Of a stretch of 64,000 bases of DNA, positions 100 through 11,446 are shown piece by piece. The translations under genes and the position numbers were made by a program. This DNA is from Clostridia bacterium. Its GTDB lineage: Bacteria; Bacillota; Clostridia; TANB77; UBA1234. How positions within the stretch are numbered: the first letter of the stretch is position 1; each line of letters opens with the position of its first letter. The stretch lies in assembly GCA_017518295.1 (NCBI GenBank), contig JAFWVJ010000012.1:338010-402009 (forward strand), in the 5' to 3' direction. Below the pieces are notes generated by a model. It was not told where the DNA came from. It did no database searches and was given only the letters and a program-made list of their open reading frames with translations.

Positions 100-387
100 G
101 TGCTGAAGATGAGTAAATATGAAACTTGGCATGAAGTAAAAAAAGAATTACGTATATCTAAAGAACAAGAAGCAGAAATCAAATTAGAAGAAGAACTAAT
201 TGAAGCTACAATTGCTGCAAGAAATAAGAAGCAATTGACTCAAAGAGAACTTAGCAAACGTACTTCAATACCGCAATCAACAATTGCAAGAATTGAATCC
301 GGACTAGTATCCCCTAAAATTCAGACATTAAATAAATTATTAATTGCAATGGGATATAGATTAAAAATAGTTGAAATGGATAAATAG
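100..387 (+). CDS. XRE-family helix-turn-helix DNA-binding protein (HigA/antitoxin-like, ~95 aa)
   Basis: ORF track; HTH core LTQRELSKRTSIPQSTIARIESG; followed by hairpin plus T-run. Confidence 0.6.
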   Translation: MLKMSKYETWHEVKKELRISKEQEAEIKLEEELIEATIAARNKKQLTQRELSKRTSIPQSTIARIESGLVSPKIQTLNKLLIAMGYRLKIVEMDK

Positions 388-499: not shown

Positions 500-1084
500 T
501 TATTCATAATACATCACTTTTCCGATTCTTTTAACATATGACTTTTTTGTGTTTTTATCAATATAATATAATTTTTTTGAATTATCCCATTTATAGCCAT
601 ATAATTTAAGTAATAGTTTAACATCATCTTTGCTTATTCTTAAAAGTCCTGCTAATTCGTTATGATTCCATAAATTTCTCTTGTATAAAAAATCCATCAT
701 CGCATGTGGATATGGTTTTTCCTTTTCAAAATATCTCTTAATAAAATCAATAAATGCTATAAAGCCACCAAATACTGATATAGCATTTATTATACTTCCA
801 ACCATTTCCCATACTTTAATCCAATCAATTAGAGTCGGCCCACCAGCTAGTGCAATCCCATATTCGATACAAATACAATTATTCTTTATATTATGTGTTT
901 TTATAAAATCATCAATTAAAATACTATCCAAATTTGCATTAAATCTTAATTGATTATTAATAATAATGTATGGTATTTCATTATTAATGAAGCTATTAGA
1001 ATAATAAACATAGTATCTATCATATGAAATTCCACATTGCGGTGCTCCAATCAACTCTCTAATTTGTTTCAAAGTAGATTTCAT
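500..1084 (-). CDS. hypothetical protein (194 aa), last gene of XRE/ImmA-Fic operon
   Basis: long ORF co-oriented and tightly spaced with upstream genes; hydrophobic segment GSIINAISVFGGFIAFIDFI; no recognisable motif. Confidence 0.4.
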   Translation of the reverse strand: MKSTLKQIRELIGAPQCGISYDRYYVYYSNSFINNEIPYIIINNQLRFNANLDSILIDDFIKTHNIKNNCICIEYGIALAGGPTLIDWIKVWEMVGSIINAISVFGGFIAFIDFIKRYFEKEKPYPHAMMDFLYKRNLWNHNELAGLLRISKDDVKLLLKLYGYKWDNSKKLYYIDKNTKKSYVKRIGKVMYYE

Positions 1085-1175: not shown

Positions 1176-2084
1176 TCATTCCTTCTTCATCATATCATAA
1201 TTCTCTTTTCCAAATTCACATGTATCGCCACAATCTATTAATCTGGGAATCCTTATCCTATCAAAACCTTCAATATCTAAATATGGTTCATAAATAATAC
1301 TCTTATGTAGCTGAGGATAACATATGGCATAACAGCCATTTACAAAATTGGAAACAATTATTCCATCTCCATATTCTATACTATTTCCAAATATTACACC
1401 TTCTCCAGGCAGCAGTGTTTGTCTTTTGAAAGTTTCAAAAAAGTATTCATTCGAATAAGTAAATCCATCTTTGCCATAATAACAATTAACCATGTTCTTC
1501 CCAACACTATCCGCATCAATATTTTTATTTAATACGTTTGAAAAGCAAAACTTGTCAAAACAAAACATGTTGTCTTCTTCAGACAAATCATTATCATAAT
1601 ACACATCCTTAATATTTTCATCAAGTCGCATGCTTTGAAAAGCTCTAAAACAATCTTTAACCCCTATCCAACATGAATCAACATCATTTAAAGTGCCGTC
1701 TTTAACTAAATACAAACCTTTATTTTTGTTATCAGCAAATGCAATTATAAAGTCAGTATCTTGATTATATTTGTTATTAATATCCAATGCTTTATTTACT
1801 ATTTCAGACAATGTAGATGATCCTCTATTTTCAATATAAGCTAAAAGTTCATTAAAATGTTCAACAATTCCAGCTGCACCAACACATAGATTTCTATTTA
1901 TAATTACATTTTTTATAATTCCATATTTATTGATTAAATTAGCGGTATCTCCAATTTTATTAAGCAACTGATCGGATATTTCACTATAATTAATCTTAGT
2001 ATCGGCCAATATATATAAATAATTATTAGTCTTTCTAGCAAATAAAAAACTCAAGTATTTGACCTCACTTCCTGTAATACTCAT
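1176..2084 (-). CDS. hypothetical protein (302 aa), Cys/Asp-rich C-terminal half
   Basis: long ORF in operon; no family recognised by eye. Confidence 0.45.
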   Translation of the reverse strand: MSITGSEVKYLSFLFARKTNNYLYILADTKINYSEISDQLLNKIGDTANLINKYGIIKNVIINRNLCVGAAGIVEHFNELLAYIENRGSSTLSEIVNKALDINNKYNQDTDFIIAFADNKNKGLYLVKDGTLNDVDSCWIGVKDCFRAFQSMRLDENIKDVYYDNDLSEEDNMFCFDKFCFSNVLNKNIDADSVGKNMVNCYYGKDGFTYSNEYFFETFKRQTLLPGEGVIFGNSIEYGDGIIVSNFVNGCYAICYPQLHKSIIYEPYLDIEGFDRIRIPRLIDCGDTCEFGKENYDMMKKE

Positions 2085-2129: not shown

Positions 2130-2531
2130 TTAATAATAAACTCTTTTAATCATTTCAGCTTCATTTTGATATCCTTTTTCCTCAAGTTTTTTTATAAACA
2201 CATCCCACGGCGGTATATTACTCATATAGGGTTTTCCCGGTCCAGAATACATACCTCCGCCAGGTCCTGTATACAGACCGCCACCTGGCCCTGAATATAA
2301 TCCACCTCCAGGAGCAGTTGATAATCCACCACCTGGTCCTCTATATAAACCACCACCTGGTCCTGTGTATAGGCCTCCGCCTGGTCCTGTGTATAGACCT
2401 CCTCCCGGTCCTGTGTATAAACCACCATTAGGTCCCCTATAAGCTCCACCACTTGGTCCTGTATATAATCCGCCTCCAGGAGCAGTTGATAGTCCACCAC
2501 CTGGTCCTGTATATTTATTTCTAGGCCACAT
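2130..2531 (-). CDS. glycine-rich protein with ~10 tandem GPGGGLYTGP-type decapeptide repeats and a short globular C-terminus
   Basis: translation shows (Y/S)(T/R/S)(G/A)P(G/S/N)GG(L/A/M)Y repeated; underlying 30-nt imperfect tandem DNA repeats; no signal peptide. Confidence 0.55.
   Translation of the reverse strand: MWPRNKYTGPGGGLSTAPGGGLYTGPSGGAYRGPNGGLYTGPGGGLYTGPGGGLYTGPGGGLYRGPGGGLSTAPGGGLYSGPGGGLYTGPGGGMYSGPGKPYMSNIPPWDVFIKKLEEKGYQNEAEMIKRVYY
2222..2521. repeat. 30-bp imperfect tandem repeat array (coding, within Gly-rich protein gene)
   Basis: repeated cctggtcctgtgtata(g/a)(g/a)cc(t/a)cc(g/a/t)cc units visible in sequence. Confidence 0.7.
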
Positions 2532-2543
2532 AATTTATTCCTC

Positions 2544-3899
2544 CTATTCTTCAAAAAACAAGTAGTTGTGTAATTCAGAAAGCGAATGTATTATTCTTTT
2601 TTCAACAAATACAATTAATGGAACATAATCGTTTTCTACATCAATCTTAGAAAGTGCATCCAAGTATTCTGCTTTTGATTCCTTATCCACATAAATCGGA
2701 GGAATTCTTTTAAGTCTAAACATCCAATTAAGCATTGCTCTTGATACTCTTCCATTTCCATCCGAAAAAGGATGAATTTTAATAAATCTATATATAAAAT
2801 ATATTACTCTTTCAATATATTCACTAGTTGAAAATTTATTAATATCCTTTATAAAAAAATCAAATTCTTTATCAAGCTTCTTCAATTCATCATCAATTTG
2901 CGAATATGAAATTGGTTGAATAGTACCACTTAATAATACTGCATCATTAGTTCTATAAAGTCCAGAATACTCAGGATAAGGAACATATGAATATAATAAT
3001 TTGTGTAATTTTTTGCATTTGTTGATTGAAAAACTCTCTTTTGTGGTTAAAACATATTTTTGCATTGTATAGTTTCCTAAAGTAAATACAATGCCTTCGT
3101 CTTCGATTTCAAAAAATTTACTCTTAATTCCATTGTACCTTAAATCCGTAAGTATATAAGGAACATCATTTTCATTTATTCCTTCTATGCGATTGTCATG
3201 ATAAATATAATCATTTAAAAATTTAATACCAGTTATTGAATTAAGATCTATCATACAATAGCTCATACTATTAATTGCATTTCCTATCAATAAGAAATCA
3301 TTAGTTGTTTTTATAAACTGCTTTCTTTTACTTTCCGGTTTATATTTTTTAATTCTATCATTAAGAGTATCATAATCTCCTTCAATGAATTTAAAATCGT
3401 AGGCTAACCTAAAAACACAACTTTGAAAACTTACACCAAAATATTCTGCAATATATGTAATAGATTCAAAAGAAATATATCCATTTTCATTCTTATAATA
3501 GTTATATAATTCTTTAACTTTAAAATCAGGCATTAAAAAGCAAGCTGCAAATCTATCTGCGAACTTTTCAATGCTACTATTAGAGTTTTTGAAACATTGT
3601 ATTTGAGCTATATCATTTTTTGCTTTTTTAATGTCTTTGACAAAATGACATAATTCGTGGGCAGCTGTAAATCTTTGTCTAGTCCATGGTCTATTCTTAT
3701 TAATACCTACAACAGTTACATTATCACTATCATTAATAATAATACCTTCTAAATCATCAAAATCAGAAAATGATATAACAACTTCATTGTCTTTTAAAAC
3801 ATTAAAAGGATCAATAGGGAATGAAATGCTGCCATTTTTCTTTTTAATTTTATTTAATTCATGTTTAGCTAGTTCATTAGGAGTTATAGTACCATTCAT
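2544..3899 (-). CDS. fusion protein: N-terminal ImmA/IrrE-family (COG2856) zinc metallopeptidase domain plus C-terminal Fic/Doc (AMPylation-type) domain
   Basis: HExxH motif AAHELCHFV in N-terminal half; Fic motif HPFSDGNGRVSR near C-terminus; adjacent to XRE regulator gene. Confidence 0.75.
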   Translation of the reverse strand: MNGTITPNELAKHELNKIKKKNGSISFPIDPFNVLKDNEVVISFSDFDDLEGIIINDSDNVTVVGINKNRPWTRQRFTAAHELCHFVKDIKKAKNDIAQIQCFKNSNSSIEKFADRFAACFLMPDFKVKELYNYYKNENGYISFESITYIAEYFGVSFQSCVFRLAYDFKFIEGDYDTLNDRIKKYKPESKRKQFIKTTNDFLLIGNAINSMSYCMIDLNSITGIKFLNDYIYHDNRIEGINENDVPYILTDLRYNGIKSKFFEIEDEGIVFTLGNYTMQKYVLTTKESFSINKCKKLHKLLYSYVPYPEYSGLYRTNDAVLLSGTIQPISYSQIDDELKKLDKEFDFFIKDINKFSTSEYIERVIYFIYRFIKIHPFSDGNGRVSRAMLNWMFRLKRIPPIYVDKESKAEYLDALSKIDVENDYVPLIVFVEKRIIHSLSELHNYLFFEE

Positions 3900-3904
3900 A
3901 TAAA

Positions 3905-4237
3905 TTATTTTTCCTTACTTTTATATTCGTTTTTAAGTTTTATAAGATTTAAAATCTCTTTTTTGTCTTTTTCACTTAGTTTTTTAAATCCTCTAGCAAA
4001 TGCAACCTCATGTTCATCTATCTTTGTATTATTAACTAACTCATCCATGCTAATATTATATAATTTAGAAAAATTCATTAGTTCATTAGCATCGATTTTT
4101 CTATTACCATTTTCAATTCTAAGTATAGCATCTCTACCAATATTAAGAATTTGTGCAACTTGTAATTGTGTAAGACCCAAATACTCTCTAGCATTTCTTA
4201 ATCTAATGCCAATCTTCTTGTAATCTAATTGTTTCAT
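3905..4237 (-). CDS. XRE-family HTH transcriptional regulator (ImmR-like partner of ImmA domain)
   Basis: LTQLQVAQILNIGRDAILRIENGNRKIDANEL HTH; 5 nt upstream of ImmA-Fic gene. Confidence 0.75.
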   Translation of the reverse strand: MKQLDYKKIGIRLRNAREYLGLTQLQVAQILNIGRDAILRIENGNRKIDANELMNFSKLYNISMDELVNNTKIDEHEVAFARGFKKLSEKDKKEILNLIKLKNEYKSKEK

Positions 4238-4360
4238 TTATAAACTCTCCTTTACATAATGCAAATATATTATATAACTATATGTTGAAATAGTCAACAT
4301 CATTTTTACTAATTAAGCCACTCCCTTGCCTCTCAGCAAAGGAATGGCTTTTATATTCTC

Positions 4361-4717
4361 TTATGGCTTACACACCTTACATGGTGTTAATCCCATACTT
4401 ATTGCTTGATCTAAAGTTATTTCAGTACATGAAGTCTTTAGATACCTACATCCTTCTTTATGATATTTCGTCCCTGTTTTCGTTCTATAAACAGTATCAC
4501 CTATAATAATACTCTTAAAATCTGTAACTCGTGAAACATTATTTGATGCACCAAGAAAAACACTACTATTATTAGAAGTGTTACTTCCTTTTACTTCTAA
4601 ATACTCAACCTTATTTTGTAATTCATTAATTATTTTTGAATTGTTGTATTGTAAATAACCTAGTAAGGATACAACAATAACAAATATAGTAATAATAGTC
4701 TTTTTCAAATAAAACAC
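4361..4717 (-). CDS. membrane-anchored small protein with C-terminal Cys motif (KYHKEGCRYL...PCKVCKP)
   Basis: N-terminal TM helix; C-terminal YHx3C...PCxxC putative metal-binding module. Confidence 0.5.
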   Translation of the reverse strand: MFYLKKTIITIFVIVVSLLGYLQYNNSKIINELQNKVEYLEVKGSNTSNNSSVFLGASNNVSRVTDFKSIIIGDTVYRTKTGTKYHKEGCRYLKTSCTEITLDQAISMGLTPCKVCKP

Positions 4718-4728
4718 CTCATTTAAAA

Positions 4729-6225
4729 CTATTTCTTTAGCAAATAATTTTTTAAATATAAAATTTCTTTTTTATAAAAAATCATACTTGAAATAAAATA
4801 GATTAATAAAATAATCAAAGAATATGTAATTCCAGCAATTATCCAGGAAAAAATAGAATAATCAACTGTAGGTATTAAATATAAACTAATGCAAATTCCT
4901 ACTAATGAAGAAACTCCAAATACTATAAATTTCTTTAAAAAAATACTTAATTTTCTATTAAGTATATGATTTTTTAGAAAATATACCTGATATATGGTTC
5001 TATAAGTCATTGCCACCAATGTACCAATTGCAATTCCTAATAATCCTAAATAATTAATTAAAACAATAGATACAGCAATATTTATAACAGCCTCTAAATA
5101 AGCTGGTATTTTCATCTTTTTAAACATATTAGCAGAATAAGCCAATGAAAGATGTGGGCTTTTTAAAACATACATTAATTCTGCTACCACTAAAACTATG
5201 CCAAATAGAGGCTCATAGTAATTAATATCAGTTATATTTTTAGTATATATCATTACAAAAGGCGTAATTAGTAATCCAGCGACAGTAAACAAAAATCCAA
5301 CAGCAAAAAAATTAAAGAATTCATATGTGTTAAATTTTTCATTTAATTCTTCGATATTTCCTTTGGCATATAAGTGTCCAATATTAGGCATTATGGCAGA
5401 GGTAATTGACTTAATAGTTTGTGTTAAGCCATTTACAACTAGCTTATATATTGAATAAACTGATACCAATTTTATGTCAGATAAAACTGTAAGTAGAAAA
5501 ACATCTGTGTTAGCATGTATAAAGTAAGCAATATTAATTGCAAAACCATCCCATCTTTGCTTAATAAGACTATTATCTTCTTTTAAAGATGAATCAATGA
5601 TAAAGTACTTTTTTATAAAATGATTAAATACAATTGGTTGAACAATATATAATAATGCGGAAATCATCTTTATAACATGAATACTTGGATAAATATACAA
5701 TGAAACAATTGCCAAAAATATATTTAAAACAAATATAATACTTTGAGTAAAAGAAACTATGTAAACCTTCTTGTCGGCATTTAATAACAATTTTAATGCA
5801 AGAGAAAAATGATACTGCATAAAAAGACCAAAAGACATTATTAATACCAATGTAATTAAATATATATATGAAAAAGATGTTTTTGCAATTAATGGATATA
5901 CAAAAGCAACAATTAAGCTATAAATTATAAATATATATGCAATTTTTCTAAAGAAATGCTTCGTAGTATTAAGAATTGAACTGATTTTACTATTGTCTTT
6001 ATTAAATAAAGGTTTGTAAAAAGCAGCCATAATAACCCCAGAAATGCCACCTTCTAATAAAGATATATAATTTAAAAATTGACCTACCGAAGAAACAAGG
6101 CCATTTACTTCAGAGCCAAAATTATTAAGTATCAATTTAGGCATAATGAAACCACTTAATATTGTTACGAATTGTAATATAAAATTTGAAATAATATTAA
6201 GTAAAACAACTTTATCTTTTTTCAA
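4729..6225 (-). CDS. wzx: oligosaccharide/polysaccharide flippase (Wzx/MOP family)
   Basis: ~500 aa, 12+ predicted TM segments, context in glycosyltransferase cluster. Confidence 0.7.
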   Translation of the reverse strand: MKKDKVVLLNIISNFILQFVTILSGFIMPKLILNNFGSEVNGLVSSVGQFLNYISLLEGGISGVIMAAFYKPLFNKDNSKISSILNTTKHFFRKIAYIFIIYSLIVAFVYPLIAKTSFSYIYLITLVLIMSFGLFMQYHFSLALKLLLNADKKVYIVSFTQSIIFVLNIFLAIVSLYIYPSIHVIKMISALLYIVQPIVFNHFIKKYFIIDSSLKEDNSLIKQRWDGFAINIAYFIHANTDVFLLTVLSDIKLVSVYSIYKLVVNGLTQTIKSITSAIMPNIGHLYAKGNIEELNEKFNTYEFFNFFAVGFLFTVAGLLITPFVMIYTKNITDINYYEPLFGIVLVVAELMYVLKSPHLSLAYSANMFKKMKIPAYLEAVINIAVSIVLINYLGLLGIAIGTLVAMTYRTIYQVYFLKNHILNRKLSIFLKKFIVFGVSSLVGICISLYLIPTVDYSIFSWIIAGITYSLIILLIYFISSMIFYKKEILYLKNYLLKK

Positions 6226-6242
6226 AACTAATCACCTCAATA

Positions 6243-7241
6243 CTATTTTTCAAAACTACATTTATCTGGAAGAATTGTTTCAAATGCATTAATTAGTTCT
6301 CTTTTAGCCTTATCGAAATCAACATTTGGATCATTATCATTCAAACAAATCATTTTATATTTTTGTTTTATAATTGAATTAATTATCTTTTCGTTATTAT
6401 TCGAGATAATAAATGGTTTACCAATTTTATAACTTCTAGGGGAAAAATTACCACTCAAAAGTTGATATTCTCTAATTAAATATTGATTAATATCAGTTTC
6501 GGTTCTAAATTTATGAGAATAAGTTTTTTCAAAAGTGTCTTTCTCTAAATTATAAAGTTCTTGGAATTTTGATTTAAGAAAAGACTGTGGCAAATGAGTA
6601 TATTTGATTCCCACAAAATTCTTAAAATATGAAAAAACAAAAGTTTTAAGATTGTTCTTGCCATATTTTATATTATAATATTTTCCTTTCAAACTCTTCT
6701 TACATTCGCTCTTCTTAAAATACTTTGACAATATGCATTCATTTTTAAACAAAGTTCCACAAAAAGGATCAATCCCAGGGTAAATAACATCTTCGGAAAA
6801 CGAGTCACATGGCAATCCATCTTTAAAAAAATCACTTTGAATGACCTCTTTAATTACAAACATATCATCATTAAAATAAACAAAATGTTCGCTAAGATCT
6901 TCAATATTATGGAAGTTCAATTCAAGTACTTTAGGATTATAAGTAGGTAAATATTTATTATCTATATAATCCTTATGATTAATTATTTTTAATTTTGGAT
7001 TATTAACATTTAAAAAGGCAGGTAAATGACCATAAGTGATAAAAAACACATTGTTTACCCATGGTGCAAATTTTTCAATGCCTCTAAACCAATATTTTAA
7101 TATATCCCAATCTCTATATCTATTAATTGAATCCGATATATCAAGATCGGGTTTAAATTTCTTTTTTTCTTCAAGCCACACAGGATCGCTTCCATCAACC
7201 CACATTAATAAAAAATCAATTTTATGATCCAAAAAAATCAC
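6243..7241 (-). CDS. Stealth-family capsular polysaccharide phosphotransferase (hexose-1-phosphate transferase)
   Basis: CR1-like LLMWVDGSDPVW and CR2-like NRYRDWDILKYWFRGIEKFAPWVNNVFFITYGH motifs. Confidence 0.7.
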   Translation of the reverse strand: MIFLDHKIDFLLMWVDGSDPVWLEEKKKFKPDLDISDSINRYRDWDILKYWFRGIEKFAPWVNNVFFITYGHLPAFLNVNNPKLKIINHKDYIDNKYLPTYNPKVLELNFHNIEDLSEHFVYFNDDMFVIKEVIQSDFFKDGLPCDSFSEDVIYPGIDPFCGTLFKNECILSKYFKKSECKKSLKGKYYNIKYGKNNLKTFVFSYFKNFVGIKYTHLPQSFLKSKFQELYNLEKDTFEKTYSHKFRTETDINQYLIREYQLLSGNFSPRSYKIGKPFIISNNNEKIINSIIKQKYKMICLNDNDPNVDFDKAKRELINAFETILPDKCSFEK

Positions 7242-7300
7242 CTCAAATTAAAGAAATTTTATATAAAAAATAAACAAAGTATGGTATTATCTCTAAACAA

Positions 7301-8456
7301 TTAAGAATTGCAATAATTCTTATGGTATTTTTCTGCTAAAAATAAAGCCAAAACAATGAATAGAACAATATCTCCACCCCTAAATTGAATTAAACCTATA
7401 ATTAGGTAGGTAATATTAAATGCAATATAAGGATTTGAAAAATAATACTTAATATTTTTAACAATGAAAAGAAATATTAAATAAACATAATATATAAAAC
7501 CAAACACTCCAACATCAAGCAACATTTGAAAATAAATGTTGTGAACATTTTCAACAGAATAATTTATAAAACTAATGTCTCTAACAGAATTAATGGCGTT
7601 ACCGCAAACCATAGCCAAACGGGTTTGTCAAAAATGCTCTAAACACATAAGTCCAAATAGTTGTCCTACCAATAATTCCCTTGTCATCTAAAGTATTTAA
7701 TAAGATAAAACGTTTAATAATATAATTTAAAAATCCAATTTTATACATTACAAATAATAAGACTGTAAATAATAATATTAGTATTAAACAATTAATAATA
7801 TTTTTTTTATTAAAAAATTGACTCAAAATAAATATAAATAACATTAAATTACAAATAATACCAGCACGAGATGTATATATAACAGAAGTAATTATACTGA
7901 AAATAAAATATGGAACTTGTCTTTTATCTCTTAAAAATAAAAATCCCATAAGAGCTATCCAGGTTGCTTCTAGATTTGAACCTCCACCAAAAAGGAAACC
8001 TATTTCTCCGCCAATATGTCCATTAATAGATGGAGATGATAAGAATTGAACTATAGTATTTATATTAAAGCAAAACCTAATAATAGTAAAAAACGCAATT
8101 GTTAATGCTACATATTGAAATATTGATAATAGCACACTAGATTCAATGTCACTTGATATATTTATTATTAAAACAATAATGTATAAACCAAATAAATAAT
8201 TTAATATCAAACTATCGAATCCAAATTTTAAATAAGCAAAAGTTGAAATTAAAGAAATAATTAAAAAGAAAAGCAATATTCTCTTCTCAGGCAAAAAAAC
8301 CTTTTCTCTCTTAAGCAAAAACAATAATCCCAATAATGAAAAAAGATGATATAATTTAAAAGCAAAACCATTTAATTGAATAAGATTAATATTTTGTAAA
8401 CAACACGTTAGTATTAATAGATATATATATGCATATCTTATATTTAGTTTAAACAT
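7301..8456 (-). pseudogene. wzy: Wzy-type oligosaccharide repeat-unit polymerase/O-antigen-ligase-like membrane protein, interrupted by a single-nt frameshift near 7600-7618
   Basis: two overlapping ORFs (7599-8456 and 7301-7618) in adjacent frames; deleting one nt gives continuous ...NPFGYGLGNAINSV...VENVHNIYFQMLLDVGVFGFI (Wzy_C-like). Confidence 0.55.
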
Positions 8457-8501
8457 ACCCTACTCCTTATAAAGCAAATCAAATTTACAATATCCCTTGA
8501 A

Positions 8502-9512
8502 TTAATGTAAATGAAGGCTTCTTTTTATTTTCTTAATCTTATTTCTTATCTTAATATATTTATATATTTTATAATAATTATTTTTTAAAGAATATCTAAA
8601 CAATAAACGTAATTCTCCGTTTAAGCTTACTATATTTTCTATTTTCAATATGTTTGATTCTTTTAAATAGTCAATATAAGAATGAATTAGATTTATTTGA
8701 TTTCTTTTATCATTTATTGTAAAAAAATCCGCAGATAACGCATCTCTATAGACCAACATGTATTTTTTTAATATAAATTTACTATCATAGTTCATTACAT
8801 CAAATAATTCTTTTAATTTTTCAACTAAATAAACTTGATTAAAAAACTCTTTATGTTTATAATCGCTAGAGATTCCAAAAGTATTATCAATATAATTATA
8901 ATAGCAATCGTTTGTAAATATTACATTATTAATATATTTGAAATATTCTATATTAAACAATAGATCCTCACCATTTTGATATTTTAAATTAAATCTAATA
9001 TTATTATCATCTATAATTTTTTTAAAATATATTTTATTACAAAGACTATTAAAAAAATTATTTTCAAGTAAATATTCAACCTTTTTTAAATATTCACAAC
9101 CATTATAAGATTTAATATCTAGCAATTTAATAATATTGAAATTTGAAATATAATTAATGCCACAAACCACAATGCTATTATCTTTCAAATTATTGACCAT
9201 AATTTCAATGTAATTCGGTAAAATATGGTCATCGCTATCAACAAACATGATGTATTCACCTGAAGAATTTGCTATGCCTATATTTCTTGCGTTAGCTACA
9301 CCTTTATTATCTATGTTAATTAATTTAACATTATCTTTATTTTTTACTATTTTTTCACAAATAATCTTTGTATTATCTTTGCTTCCATCGTTAACGATTA
9401 TTATCTCTATATTTTTGTAATTTTGATTTATTATTGACTCAATGCACTTTTTAATAGTATTTTGGCTATTAAAAGCAGGAACAATAATAGAAACTAAAGA
9501 ATTACTATTCAT
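8502..9512 (-). CDS. family 2 glycosyltransferase
   Basis: SIIVPAFNSQNTIKKCIESIINQNYKNIEIIIVNDGS...FVDSDD. Confidence 0.8.
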   Translation of the reverse strand: MNSNSLVSIIVPAFNSQNTIKKCIESIINQNYKNIEIIIVNDGSKDNTKIICEKIVKNKDNVKLINIDNKGVANARNIGIANSSGEYIMFVDSDDHILPNYIEIMVNNLKDNSIVVCGINYISNFNIIKLLDIKSYNGCEYLKKVEYLLENNFFNSLCNKIYFKKIIDDNNIRFNLKYQNGEDLLFNIEYFKYINNVIFTNDCYYNYIDNTFGISSDYKHKEFFNQVYLVEKLKELFDVMNYDSKFILKKYMLVYRDALSADFFTINDKRNQINLIHSYIDYLKESNILKIENIVSLNGELRLLFRYSLKNNYYKIYKYIKIRNKIKKIKRSLHLH

Positions 9513-9542
9513 ATATACTCCTTATTTGACAAATTGCCTTAA

Positions 9543-10334
9543 TTACGATTTTCTCATCTTATTTAATATTCTAATTGGAATAATAGATAAAATTATGGGT
9601 TTAAAAATATATATTAACCCTTTTGGATATAAACCTAATAATCTAAATCCTCTTACTCTAATTAAAAACTCATTAATTCTATATTTAAAAATTTGTCTTC
9701 TTTTATAAGCATCTTTATCCAAACGCCAATTATATAAGCATTCTTCTAAATTATACATTTTTACACCTTTTGCAAACATTCTCATAAATAAATCATAATC
9801 TTCAACTCTACAACAAATTTTCTCTTCATTATAACCATTGACAATATCAAAACAATACTTTTTGGCAACAATAGCTGCATGAGTAATAGGGGAATTTTTC
9901 AAAAAATCTTCCTTGCAAATACTTGATTTTCTTATAATTCTGGAATATATACCTCTATCGTCGAACAAATTAACATTACAAGTAACTAAATCAAAATTAT
10001 TATTCTTTAAAAAGTTCAATTGTTTAGAAAGTCTATCTAAAGAACAAAAATCGTCATCGTCCATCCTAGCTATATATTTTCCACGAGAAACCTTTAAACA
10101 GCAATTTAAAGCATGTGCAAGTCCTTTATTTTCATCACTATGTAAAAATATAACATTATTTCTATTCTTACAAATATCTTTTACCCAATTAAAACAGTCA
10201 TTAGTTGAACCGTCATCATATATTATCAATTCAAAGTCTTGAAATGATTGATTAAAAATTGAACTTAGAGACTTTTTTAAATAATCTTTATTCTTTGTAT
10301 TATAAATACTCATTAAAATACTAATTTCTGGCAT
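9543..10334 (-). CDS. family 2 glycosyltransferase
   Basis: ISILMSIYNTKNKDYLKKSLSSIFNQSFQDFELIIYDDGS...MDDDD. Confidence 0.8.
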   Translation of the reverse strand: MPEISILMSIYNTKNKDYLKKSLSSIFNQSFQDFELIIYDDGSTNDCFNWVKDICKNRNNVIFLHSDENKGLAHALNCCLKVSRGKYIARMDDDDFCSLDRLSKQLNFLKNNNFDLVTCNVNLFDDRGIYSRIIRKSSICKEDFLKNSPITHAAIVAKKYCFDIVNGYNEEKICCRVEDYDLFMRMFAKGVKMYNLEECLYNWRLDKDAYKRRQIFKYRINEFLIRVRGFRLLGLYPKGLIYIFKPIILSIIPIRILNKMRKS

Positions 10335-11446
10335 TTTTTTAACCTTTCCAAATAACTGTCTACAAGCTTATTATTTTCAACCAAAATATCAAAATTGCTA
10401 TTTTGTAATTTTGTTTGCATCATTCTATTTGAATTTTTAATTATTAAAATAGAATTAATCCAATCTTCAATTGGAGCATCTAAAGAAATAAAAAATAAGT
10501 TATCATTATAACAATCTAAAGATGGAACATTACTTGAACAAACACATGGCAAATAAGAGCATTGTGCCTCTAACAAAACATTTCCAAACCCTTCATATAA
10601 TGAAGGAAAAATTAATATATCCATTGCTTGATAAAACCTTTCAACGTCCTCTCTTTGACCTAATAACATTACTTTATTATGAATTTTTAAACTATCAATC
10701 AAGTTTTCTATTTCGCCTTTTAAAGGACCATCACCTATTAAAATCAACTTCGAATTAATACTACTCTTTAGAAATTCATTAAATAATTTAATTATAAATT
10801 TGTGATTTTTAACAGTAACAAACCTTCCGACATGTCCTATTACTAATGTATTCTCATCAATTCCTAATTCATTTCTAACTTTTTTCCTAATATCAGCATT
10901 AAATTTATATTTTCCAACATCAATTGCATTATTGATTATAGTTACTTTTCCACTATCAAACGCCTTATTTCCAAACTGATATCTTCCCGCTTTTTCACTG
11001 CAAGCAAAATAATCTGTAGCATATAATTTTGAAAAATGTTTAAGTACATTTTTCATAATATTTCTTTTAAATTCTTTTGGACTAGTTGTACTATGACTAT
11101 GTGCTATCCTCACTTTTACTCTAGCTTTTTTTGCTGCATATAAAGGAAATACTGAAAGTGTATTTATATTTGAATGTACTATTTGGTAATTATTCTCTTT
11201 AAAGATTCTCTTAAGCTCTTTTATATATCTAGGAAGTTTTTGATAAGGTGGACAAATTATTACTCTTCCGCCCAAAGATTCTATTTCTTCATAAGGTATG
11301 TTTGTTGAATCTTCATCACAAATAAAGTCAAACTGAATTTTGTTTCTATCTATATGACGATAATAATTCATTATTACGGCTTCAACTCCACCGCCTAACC
11401 ATTTACCCATTATTTGCGCTACTCTTATAGGCTCTATTTGTTCCAC
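10313..11446 (-). CDS. family 1 (GT4-type) glycosyltransferase
   Basis: GGVEAVIMNY N-terminus; C-terminal EGFGNVLLEAQ motif. Confidence 0.8.
   Translation of the reverse strand: MEQIEPIRVAQIMGKWLGGGVEAVIMNYYRHIDRNKIQFDFICDEDSTNIPYEEIESLGGRVIICPPYQKLPRYIKELKRIFKENNYQIVHSNINTLSVFPLYAAKKARVKVRIAHSHSTTSPKEFKRNIMKNVLKHFSKLYATDYFACSEKAGRYQFGNKAFDSGKVTIINNAIDVGKYKFNADIRKKVRNELGIDENTLVIGHVGRFVTVKNHKFIIKLFNEFLKSSINSKLILIGDGPLKGEIENLIDSLKIHNKVMLLGQREDVERFYQAMDILIFPSLYEGFGNVLLEAQCSYLPCVCSSNVPSLDCYNDNLFFISLDAPIEDWINSILIIKNSNRMMQTKLQNSNFDILVENNKLVDSYLERLKKCQKLVF

Follow-up and report, generated by a model that had tools for sequence, protein, structure and literature searches.

The window analysed here is a stretch of 64,000 nucleotides from a Clostridia metagenome-assembled genome (MAG), and near its start it carries, on the minus strand, a gene for a small protein made largely of glycine-, proline- and tyrosine-rich tandem repeats. 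The gene follows two others, for an XRE-family repressor and for a fusion of an ImmA/IrrE metallopeptidase with a Fic domain (ImmA-Fic); the NCBI entries are MBR3280614-17. The repeat gene is composed as follows.

2130 to 2531, minus strand: repeat-protein gene, an open reading frame (ORF) starting with ATG; 133 aa, 13.2 kDa, isoelectric point (pI) 9.4.
2508 to 2531, minus strand: N-cap pseudo-unit MWPRNKYT, with W2 and R4 invariant across the family.
2244 to 2507, minus strand: array of eleven octapeptides in register, covering residues 9-96 and repeating every 24 bp in the DNA.
2205 to 2243, minus strand: C-cap GPGKPYMSNIPPW, residues 97-109, with Y102, P107 and P108 conserved.
2133 to 2204, minus strand: two-helix C-terminal tail, with helices predicted at residues 109-118 and 122-132 and a conserved L-x(3)-G.

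The protein contains 32% Gly, 12% Pro and 10.5% Tyr, and its Gly/Pro/Tyr repeat takes up residues 9-96 of 133. The first-pass annotation had described a cytoplasmic protein with a short structured C-terminal tail, and both points hold: the N-terminus MWPRNKYT has no hydrophobic leader, and the tail is predicted to form two helices. It had further read the array as about ten decapeptides encoded by a 30-bp repeat, which has to be revised. Tandem Repeats Finder reports a single tandem repeat at 2263-2514 with a period of 24 bp, 10.5 copies and a score of 173. Because the period is 24 bp, the unit is an octapeptide present in eleven copies, and the proposed decapeptide GPGGGLYTGP takes in the GP that already belongs to the unit after it. 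Units 1 to 6 read GPGGGLST, APGGGLYT, GPSGGAYR, GPNGGLYT, GPGGGLYT and GPGGGLYT, units 7 to 11 read GPGGGLYR, GPGGGLST, APGGGLYS, GPGGGLYT and GPGGGMYS, and the protein then continues as GPGKPYMSNIPPWDVFIKKLEEKGYQNEAEMIKRVYY. Written in octads, the protein has 13 of them: the N-cap pseudo-unit, 11 canonical GPGGG[L/M/A][Y/S]T units, and the C-cap octad GPGKPYMS, which is unit-like at its start.

The synonymous divergence of the DNA units that had been remarked on earlier was confirmed, with a mean identity between units of 69% for DNA versus 76% for protein and 57% of same-residue codon pairs differing in codon. The longest exact repeat inside the array is 19 nt. It lies where units 1-2 (GPGGGLST-APGGGLY) reappear as units 8-9 at a 168-nt (7-unit) offset, and this match hints at an old internal duplication or a conversion tract particular to the window lineage.

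A word-indexed protein search with the repeat protein returned 996 clusters, and in an exhaustive profile search against 1.84 billion representatives 965 clusters (formed at 50% identity) reached E<=1e-3 and 368 reached E<=1e-10. Family-wide, the proteins share an N-cap W-P-R-[DN]-x-[YS]-T, a C-cap P-Y-x-S-N-x-P-P-[WR] and a tail L-x(3)-G-x(4)-A-x-[LI]-I. The window repeat protein matched no family in Pfam, NCBIfam, PHROG or PADLOC (E<=0.1), nor did the homologues P0003 and P0055 match any in NCBIfam. PDB sequence searches with the single sequence and with a profile found no homologue, the sole match being low-complexity GANGGLNN repeats of Plasmodium RON2, and a full-text literature search with the repeat and cap strings of the family found nothing relevant.

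The GTDB genomes, one per species, were scanned with a degenerate DNA pattern made of the N-cap and the first two GGG triplets; since the pattern requires the first two units only, it carries no bias to array length. The scan gave at least 120 stretches, about half of the matches being GC-rich chance hits that were filtered out, and at least 56 were true members. Among the matches listed, members come from Clostridia, Bacilli (including Streptococcus mitis and Sporosarcina), Bacteroidota, Actinomycetota, Alpha-, Beta- and Gammaproteobacteria (including Pseudomonas oleovorans), Chloroflexota, Cyanobacteria, Verrucomicrobiota, Planctomycetota, Myxococcota, Acidobacteriota, Armatimonadota, and one archaeal Methanospirillum MAG.

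When compared with eleven-unit orthologues, the repeat region has a ratio of nonsynonymous to synonymous substitution rates (dN/dS) of 0.03-0.12 with dS saturated, and its amino-acid identity stays at 80-88% from Clostridia to Bacteroidota and to Pseudomonas. The minus-strand ORF at 2130 to 2531 is a genuine, selectively constrained gene that belongs to a large unnamed family. A low-complexity artefact, that is, a non-coding or non-functional tandem repeat that stays open, could have been argued from the lack of database annotation and from a second long ORF that is open in another frame. The overlapping alternative-frame ORFs (2222 to 2554, minus strand, and 2166 to 2294, plus strand) are by-products of the repeat, and the low dN/dS in the annotated frame, a strong Shine-Dalgarno sequence, and non-repetitive caps and tail conserved in hundreds of clusters refute the artefact, to which we give practically no chance.

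The number of units is also conserved. Of the 48 complete members among the matches listed, 35 carry eleven units each and one carries twelve, with 4-10 in the rest; four more members with a GDG or GR variant apparently have eleven units as counted by eye. Eleven is the modal and near-maximal number. The units also differ from each other in a fixed manner. Position 6 is Ala in unit 3 of 27 of the 35 eleven-unit members, as it is in the window (GPSGGAYR), and Leu in units 6, 8 and 10 of 35, 34 and 35 of the 35, respectively, again among the matches listed; in units 2, 4, 5 and 11 it is a mixture of Leu and Met. Because this index-specific conservation spans phyla, the units are orthologous, ancient and not interchangeable, and the earlier suggestion that the repeat number is maintained rather than freely slipping agrees with these counts. 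In a set of 249 proteins, unit counts group near 5-6 and 11-12, and half-size proteins may pair up. Five units plus the cap pseudo-unit make half of eleven plus the cap. Some short forms could come from assembly collapse of repeats in short-read metagenomes. The idea of a strict closed ring of exactly 12 units was softened, as members with 3-10 units occur.

With 64 aligned eleven-unit sequences as input, AlphaFold2 predicts one compact domain with a mean predicted local distance difference test score (pLDDT) of 95.2 (all five models at least 81) and a predicted template modelling score (pTM) of 0.88. In the model, DSSP assigns neither helix nor strand to the repeats, two helices lie at the terminus, and a bridge pairs residues 2-3 with 103-104, joining the N-cap to the C-cap. 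Such N-to-C closure is independently supported by covarying cysteines: a Cys just before WPR in the N-cap and a Cys in the C-cap (Y-C-S-N) are both present in 29 proteins, both absent from 170 and single in 15 (n=214; Fisher 5e-23, ignoring phylogeny). A hydrophobic leader is found in 25 of the 29 Cys-pair members, which fits a disulfide in the exported forms. From the model, with its one predicted bridge, and from the Cys covariation, we infer that the array would fold into a single compact non-alpha/non-beta domain, closed by contact of the N-cap with the C-cap. The predicted domain has no analogue in the PDB.

A sister secreted architecture was seen in five proteins (P0148, P0171, P0184, P0145 and P0159), which carry FKBP-like or PEGA-like N-termini or a leader only. 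By eye they end in about 11 GPGGG[LA][YS]T units (n=5), and the automatic parse gives 12-13 units in a shifted register. Their caps contain Cys (CxGYSGPGGPC ... GPGGPC ... WNRPSPxCK) in place of WPR/PPW.

The eight positions of the unit fall into two groups. Positions 3-6 (G-G-G-L) have an identity of 0.85 between units within a protein versus 0.87 between proteins, and positions 1, 2, 7 and 8 have an identity of 0.81 within a protein versus only 0.59 between proteins. Whole proteins thus come in unit flavours, such as GPGGGLYT, GPGGGLST, GVGGGLYT, LPGGGLST, SQYGGLST, YNGGGLDT, GPGGGLSI/V, and an all-Phe GPGGGLFT. It appears that positions 3-6 build the predicted fold and that positions 1, 2, 7 and 8 provide a periodic surface that differs by lineage. 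A constant scaffold with a lineage-specific periodic surface suits a binding or display module.

The array had earlier been likened to the elastic beta-spiral of flagelliform silk, with the Tyr of every unit as a candidate target of the neighbouring Fic protein; once AMPylated, the repeat would serve as a dedicated acceptor or AMP sink. The silk part of this proposal does not agree with a period of 8 instead of the GPGGX pentad, with a fixed and capped unit number, or with the compact model at pLDDT 95. The AMPylation part concerns the operon, which has the following features.

4269 to 4297, minus strand: sigma-70-like promoter TTGACT-17-TATAAT (11/12); a consensus match only, with the number of such sites equal to the shuffle expectation.
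3905 to 4237, minus strand: XRE-family helix-turn-helix (HTH) repressor, CapH-like, 110 aa (Pfam HTH_3 1.8e-10; PADLOC capH 1.6e-12).
2544 to 3899, minus strand: ImmA/IrrE (M78) metallopeptidase-Fic fusion, 451 aa (Peptidase_M78 2.6e-18, Fic 8.7e-14).
3645 to 3659, minus strand: HELCH zinc site of the ImmA domain, the HExxH of M78 peptidases.
3180 to 3197, minus strand: DNRIEG inhibitory-helix-like motif inside the ImmA-Fic gene, N-terminal to the Fic motif.
2739 to 2774, minus strand: Fic motif HPFSDGNGRVSR, the HxFx[D/E]GNGRxxR of Fic/DOC proteins.
2540 to 2545, minus strand: Shine-Dalgarno AGGAGG of the repeat gene, 8 nt 5' of the ATG and overlapping the TAG stop of ImmA-Fic (2544-2546).

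The sigma-70-like site, the best such match, lies just 5' of the XRE gene and may serve as promoter of the operon. XRE is separated from ImmA-Fic by 5 nt and ImmA-Fic from the repeat gene by 12 nt, and because AGGAGG overlaps the ImmA-Fic stop, translational coupling of the repeat gene to ImmA-Fic is suggested. By order and spacing, the repeat gene is the third cistron of the XRE / ImmA-Fic operon, and the first-pass annotation was right to call it co-operonic with ImmA-Fic. XRE homologues that are 62-69% identical hold the same position in related modules. In PADLOC, the N-terminal half of ImmA-Fic matches capP (1.2e-28), and the C-terminal half matches PDC-S04 (3.7e-20) and SoFic (5e-12). 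HELCH, HPFSDGNGRVSR and D-N-[RK]-[IL]-E-G are invariant in five ImmA-Fic homologues, and we take the DNRIEG motif to resemble the inhibitory helix of class II Fic proteins (after Engel et al. 2012).

The XRE / ImmA-Fic / repeat module recurs in about 14 sequence-distinct loci in which ImmA-Fic is 51-65% identical to that of the window. ImmA-Fic lies directly 5' of the repeat gene in L019, L065, L077 and L127, and it is frameshifted in L071, where the repeat has 3 units. Module copies with 7 units (P0065) were found in four assemblies, as three genes between a two-component system and argS, and others have 6 units (P0111) or 5 units (P0077, with ImmA-Fic 65.5% identical to the window's). Junctions within the module range from -8 to about +30 nt, and the gene order is kept through about 50% protein divergence, which argues for co-function in this clade. 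Genes 3' of the module are never conserved, and the flanks differ completely.

In the reverse direction, 30 full-length metagenomic homologues of ImmA-Fic were screened for the repeat gene. It lies directly 3' in 4 of the 5 homologues that are at least 52% identical, L162 being the exception, and in none of the 21 that are 33-49% identical and have 450 nt or more of sequence on their downstream side. Among the matches listed, Fic adjoins about 6 of 57 species-level family loci (the 56 members plus L071). GPGGG-repeat proteins beside other Fic genes were found at the module loci and in one Desulfobulbaceae MAG (L040), in which a stand-alone SoFic gene (8e-65), unrelated to ImmA-Fic, lies 76 nt 5' of the repeat gene; most of the family has no Fic neighbour. 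Judged from these neighbourhoods, the Fic link is a clade-specific capture and not a family-wide partnership. In the distant XRE / ImmA-Fic modules L170, L171, L184 and L188, other small ORFs (54-98 aa) lie directly downstream, and the third-gene position of such modules may be a variable slot.

The candidate AMPylation of the repeat draws on the tight gene coupling, on a pair kept through about 50% ImmA-Fic divergence, on a catalytically canonical Fic motif, and on the mostly hydroxyl residues at positions 7 (Y/S) and 8 (T); given the independent SoFic and repeat pair of L040, the idea stays a candidate for this clade. Position 8 keeps its Thr more consistently than position 7 keeps its Tyr, and Fic enzymes modify Ser and Thr as well. 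On the other hand, Fic stands beside so few family loci, the distant ImmA-Fic homologues carry no repeat gene, and the repeat gene is also found by itself in an integron cassette. About one quarter of lineages have Ser in place of the Tyr, one has Phe (L137) and one has Asp (L078), and these replacements weaken Tyr-AMPylation as the purpose of the family. We consider the elastic, AMPylated silk-like repeat improbable.

The same operon could be read as a toxin-antitoxin system in which the repeat protein is a toxin neutralised by Fic AMPylation (type VII-like, in the way that MntA AMPylates HepT) or an inhibitor of the Fic or ImmA domain. In RosmerTA-type systems, ImmA-domain proteins are a hub antitoxin that is combined with many unrelated toxins, and the order of the genes varies (PMC10440598); in L003 the repeat gene follows a complete RmrT-RmrA pair. 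The repeat protein itself, however, gives no match to an RmrT model and so does not qualify as a RosmerTA toxin, and its tail, ...KKLEEKGYQNEAEMIK, lacks the [S/T]xxxE[G/N] of class I Fic antitoxins (VbhA-like); moreover, the Fic protein bears its own E-G motif in DNRIEG, and most family members are alone with no plausible neutraliser. We regard a toxin-antitoxin role as quite improbable.

Outside the Fic clade, the repeat gene is found in varied mobile contexts. In Pseudomonas oleovorans DSM 1045 (L024 1400-2577), a ThsB TIR protein gene (3e-122) lies 83 nt 5' of the repeat gene on the same strand. In L003, a complete RmrT-RmrA (RosmerTA) pair, in which RmrT is a separate DUF5986 protein (9.4e-26), is followed by the repeat gene. 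In Streptococcus mitis KLC01 (L104 3564-3965), the repeat gene sits between nrdE and nrdF of class Ib ribonucleotide reductase with 27-nt gaps on both sides. In GCA_003349745.1 (L247 79-3728), a repeat gene with 9 units (P0098) is a cassette of a chromosomal integron with its own Shine-Dalgarno sequence, in an array of seven attC-like repeats of about 150 nt at 520-740 bp spacing, next to cassettes for DUF645, CcdAB, DUF3465 and DUF6404; the database protein of P0098 was over-called into the attC site. The 150-nt repeat resembles the Vibrio VCR attC sites. The window copy is not an integron cassette, as it lies in an operon. Sixteen IMG/VR contigs carry the repeat gene, with an integrase in five and a terminase or portal nearby, and Enterococcus faecium plasmids carry a copy truncated by an insertion sequence; no match was found among the INPHARED curated phage genomes.

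Counts of the two nearest neighbours on either side of 52 loci among the matches listed gave Fic (5), M78 peptidase (5), GmrSD_N/NsnA (3), AAA_13 / RloC-like PDC-S06 (3; a fourth locus, L108, was set aside as a near-duplicate of L101), SIR2_2 (2), TIR_2 (2) and Panacea (2), with further neighbours including Type ISP restriction-modification and SNF2 genes, and phage integrases in 4 loci. The family moves as single-gene cargo in integron cassettes, at prophage ends, on plasmids and in defence islands. Phage defence is among the known functions of integron cassettes (bioRxiv 10.1101/2024.07.02.601719).

These contexts bring in the main rival to our own account, in which the repeat gene is autonomous cargo, for example a single-gene anti-phage or anti-defence factor or a stress-protective binder, that has only settled 3' of genes already expressed and whose Fic neighbourhood is historical. 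The lone integron cassette with its own Shine-Dalgarno sequence and the nrdE/nrdF insertion fit such autonomy, as do the positions after ThsB, RmrT-RmrA, a Zn-ribbon ORF or a permease and beside RloC-like PDC-S06 in four loci, the integrases and terminases near the gene in proviral contigs, and the existence of exported family versions. Against autonomy, the Firmicute three-gene order with near-zero spacing is kept in about 14 loci, which exceeds usual hitch-hiking. L162 shows that a module can lose the repeat gene. We hold full autonomy to be somewhat unlikely, if well worth retaining.

We propose, tentatively and with somewhat less than even confidence, that the repeat protein serves as a rigid scaffold for binding, closed and periodic, which moves as single-gene cargo and which, in the window, is co-induced with an ImmA-gated Fic protein. 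From the model, we infer that such a scaffold would be neither an elastomer nor an enzyme. In ImmR/ImmA and CapH/CapP systems, the protease cleaves the HTH repressor upon a DNA-damage or phage signal. By analogy with these systems and with the ImmA antitoxin hub (PMC10440598), a stress or phage signal would lead the ImmA domain to cleave the XRE repressor, probably with derepression of the operon; an auto-inhibited Fic AMPylase and the scaffold would then be made together, and the scaffold, as acceptor or regulator, might bind either the Fic domain or some other ligand that is repetitive or abundant. A more elaborate account combines an unseen closed, glycine-packed fold and paired half-size forms of 5-6 units with a mobile immunity or counter-immunity cassette, in which the ImmA-controlled Fic of gut Firmicutes AMPylates a Tyr/Thr ladder and so switches binding; we give this combination only a small chance. 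Three other functions were considered and put aside: DNA mimicry was rejected because of the pI of 9.4 and the absence of an acidic surface, metal binding of the PrP type was rejected as there is no His, and ice binding by the Thr ladder was set aside as many hosts are gut anaerobes.

Several observations weigh against the co-induced scaffold. About 90% of the sampled family loci have no Fic gene, the Fic link is confined to one clade, and gene order alone points to a functional tie with Fic and ImmA. The recurrence of defence neighbours is given as raw counts with no matched control genes. Members with 3-10 units exist, some of them in isolates and in four independent assemblies, and the 5-unit form folds poorly in AlphaFold2, with a repeat pLDDT of about 30 from only 18 aligned sequences. 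Regular repeats can make AlphaFold2 over-confident. Gene conversion, and not selection, could also underlie the concerted surface pattern.

Beyond the three-gene operon, the following features complete the block at the start of the window.

1176 to 2084, minus strand: orphan gene, 302 aa, downstream of the repeat gene, with no family match.
500 to 1084, minus strand: orphan gene, 194 aa with one hydrophobic segment, downstream, with no family match.
395 to 432, no strand assigned: GC-rich hairpin with 16-nt arms that follows the final gene of the block, a likely bidirectional terminator.
4315 to 4350, no strand assigned: hairpin with 15-nt arms and the same AAGCCAC.CCC stem, just 5' of the putative operon promoter, closing the preceding gene.

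The 302-aa and 194-aa orphan genes are confined to the lineage of the window MAG (23-25 contigs), and no homologue of either was found in any of about 250 fetched loci; they were therefore rejected as conserved parts of the system. The near-identical hairpin stems (AAAGCCACACCCATGC / AAGCCACTCCCTTGC) flank the five-gene block exactly, and they could be sibling terminators or the borders of an inserted island. On one side of the block, an XRE HTH gene (100 to 387, plus strand) has as its partner a Gp49 (HigB-like) gene that lies just outside the window start (L001 10145-10778); they are a probable toxin-antitoxin pair beside the block, which fits a variable accessory region. On the other side, 4361 to 4717 (minus strand) encodes a protein of 118 aa that has a hydrophobic segment near its N-terminus and a YHxxxC...CxxC motif near its C-terminus and that matches the C-terminus of phrog_14556 (2.2e-09), and 4729 to 11446, 5' of the block, holds a surface-polysaccharide cluster with glycosyltransferases, Wzy_C, a Stealth protein and a 498-aa multi-pass membrane protein. 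It is at the edge of this cluster that the accessory block is inserted.

The family, with its fixed octapeptide architecture and predicted fold, has no described counterpart. If the prediction holds, it represents a widespread family of small proteins, described in none of the databases and papers searched, whose repeat architecture and fold class have no solved counterpart, testable via the fixed unit number, the cross-phylum conservation, and the occurrence in integron cassettes and defence islands. It would give protein design a new scaffold of the Gly-rich non-alpha/beta kind, of which there are few, and might add a new component to XRE/ImmA-controlled bacterial immune or addiction modules.

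Among known systems, flagelliform silk shares the GPGG core and the Gly/Pro/Tyr-rich composition. Silk is extracellular, repeats a pentapeptide through tens to hundreds of units and lacks caps, whereas the window family has a period of 8, eleven position-specific units, N- and C-caps and a compact predicted fold in the bacterial cytoplasm. The prion octarepeat PHGGGWGQ also has an 8-residue period and a P-x-GGG followed by an aromatic residue, as in the window family; it is flexible and binds Cu via His. The window family has no His and is unrelated to it.

Glycine-rich polyproline II (PPII) bundles are known from the snow-flea antifreeze protein 3BOG, phage S16 gp38 (6F45), the glycine-rich domain of ALK/LTK and the N-domain of Obg (bioRxiv 10.1101/2023.11.25.568672, PMC13243192). 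Like the repeat domain as predicted here, they are Gly-rich and compact without DSSP helix or strand, and they occur with varied flanking domains, as in the sister secreted proteins. No structural similarity of the repeat to the solved PPII bundles (3BOG, 6F45, 7NX1 and others) was found. A PPII bundle would have backbone phi/psi angles in the PPII region and Gly at every third residue facing the core; the sequence period of 8 is no multiple of 3. Pentapeptide-repeat proteins (Qnr, MfpA) resemble the family in having short tandem units on a regular scaffold, in being widespread and often uncharacterised, and in acting by binding. They differ in their 5-residue period, right-handed beta-helix, variable length and acidic DNA-mimic surface, as the window protein has a pI of 9.4 and no predicted beta structure.

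The closest likeness of the operon is to the CapH/CapP and ImmR/ImmA repressor-protease switches, to RosmerTA and to SoFic, with capH and capP matches upstream of the repeat gene and a Fic half that matches SoFic and PDC-S04. Unlike in these systems, among them RosmerTA with its antitoxin RmrA, made of an HTH and a Zn-peptidase, and its variable RmrT, the protease here forms one protein with Fic, and a separate gene encodes the HTH. No model in PADLOC, RmrT included, matches the repeat protein, and the cargo placed under this regulation is new.

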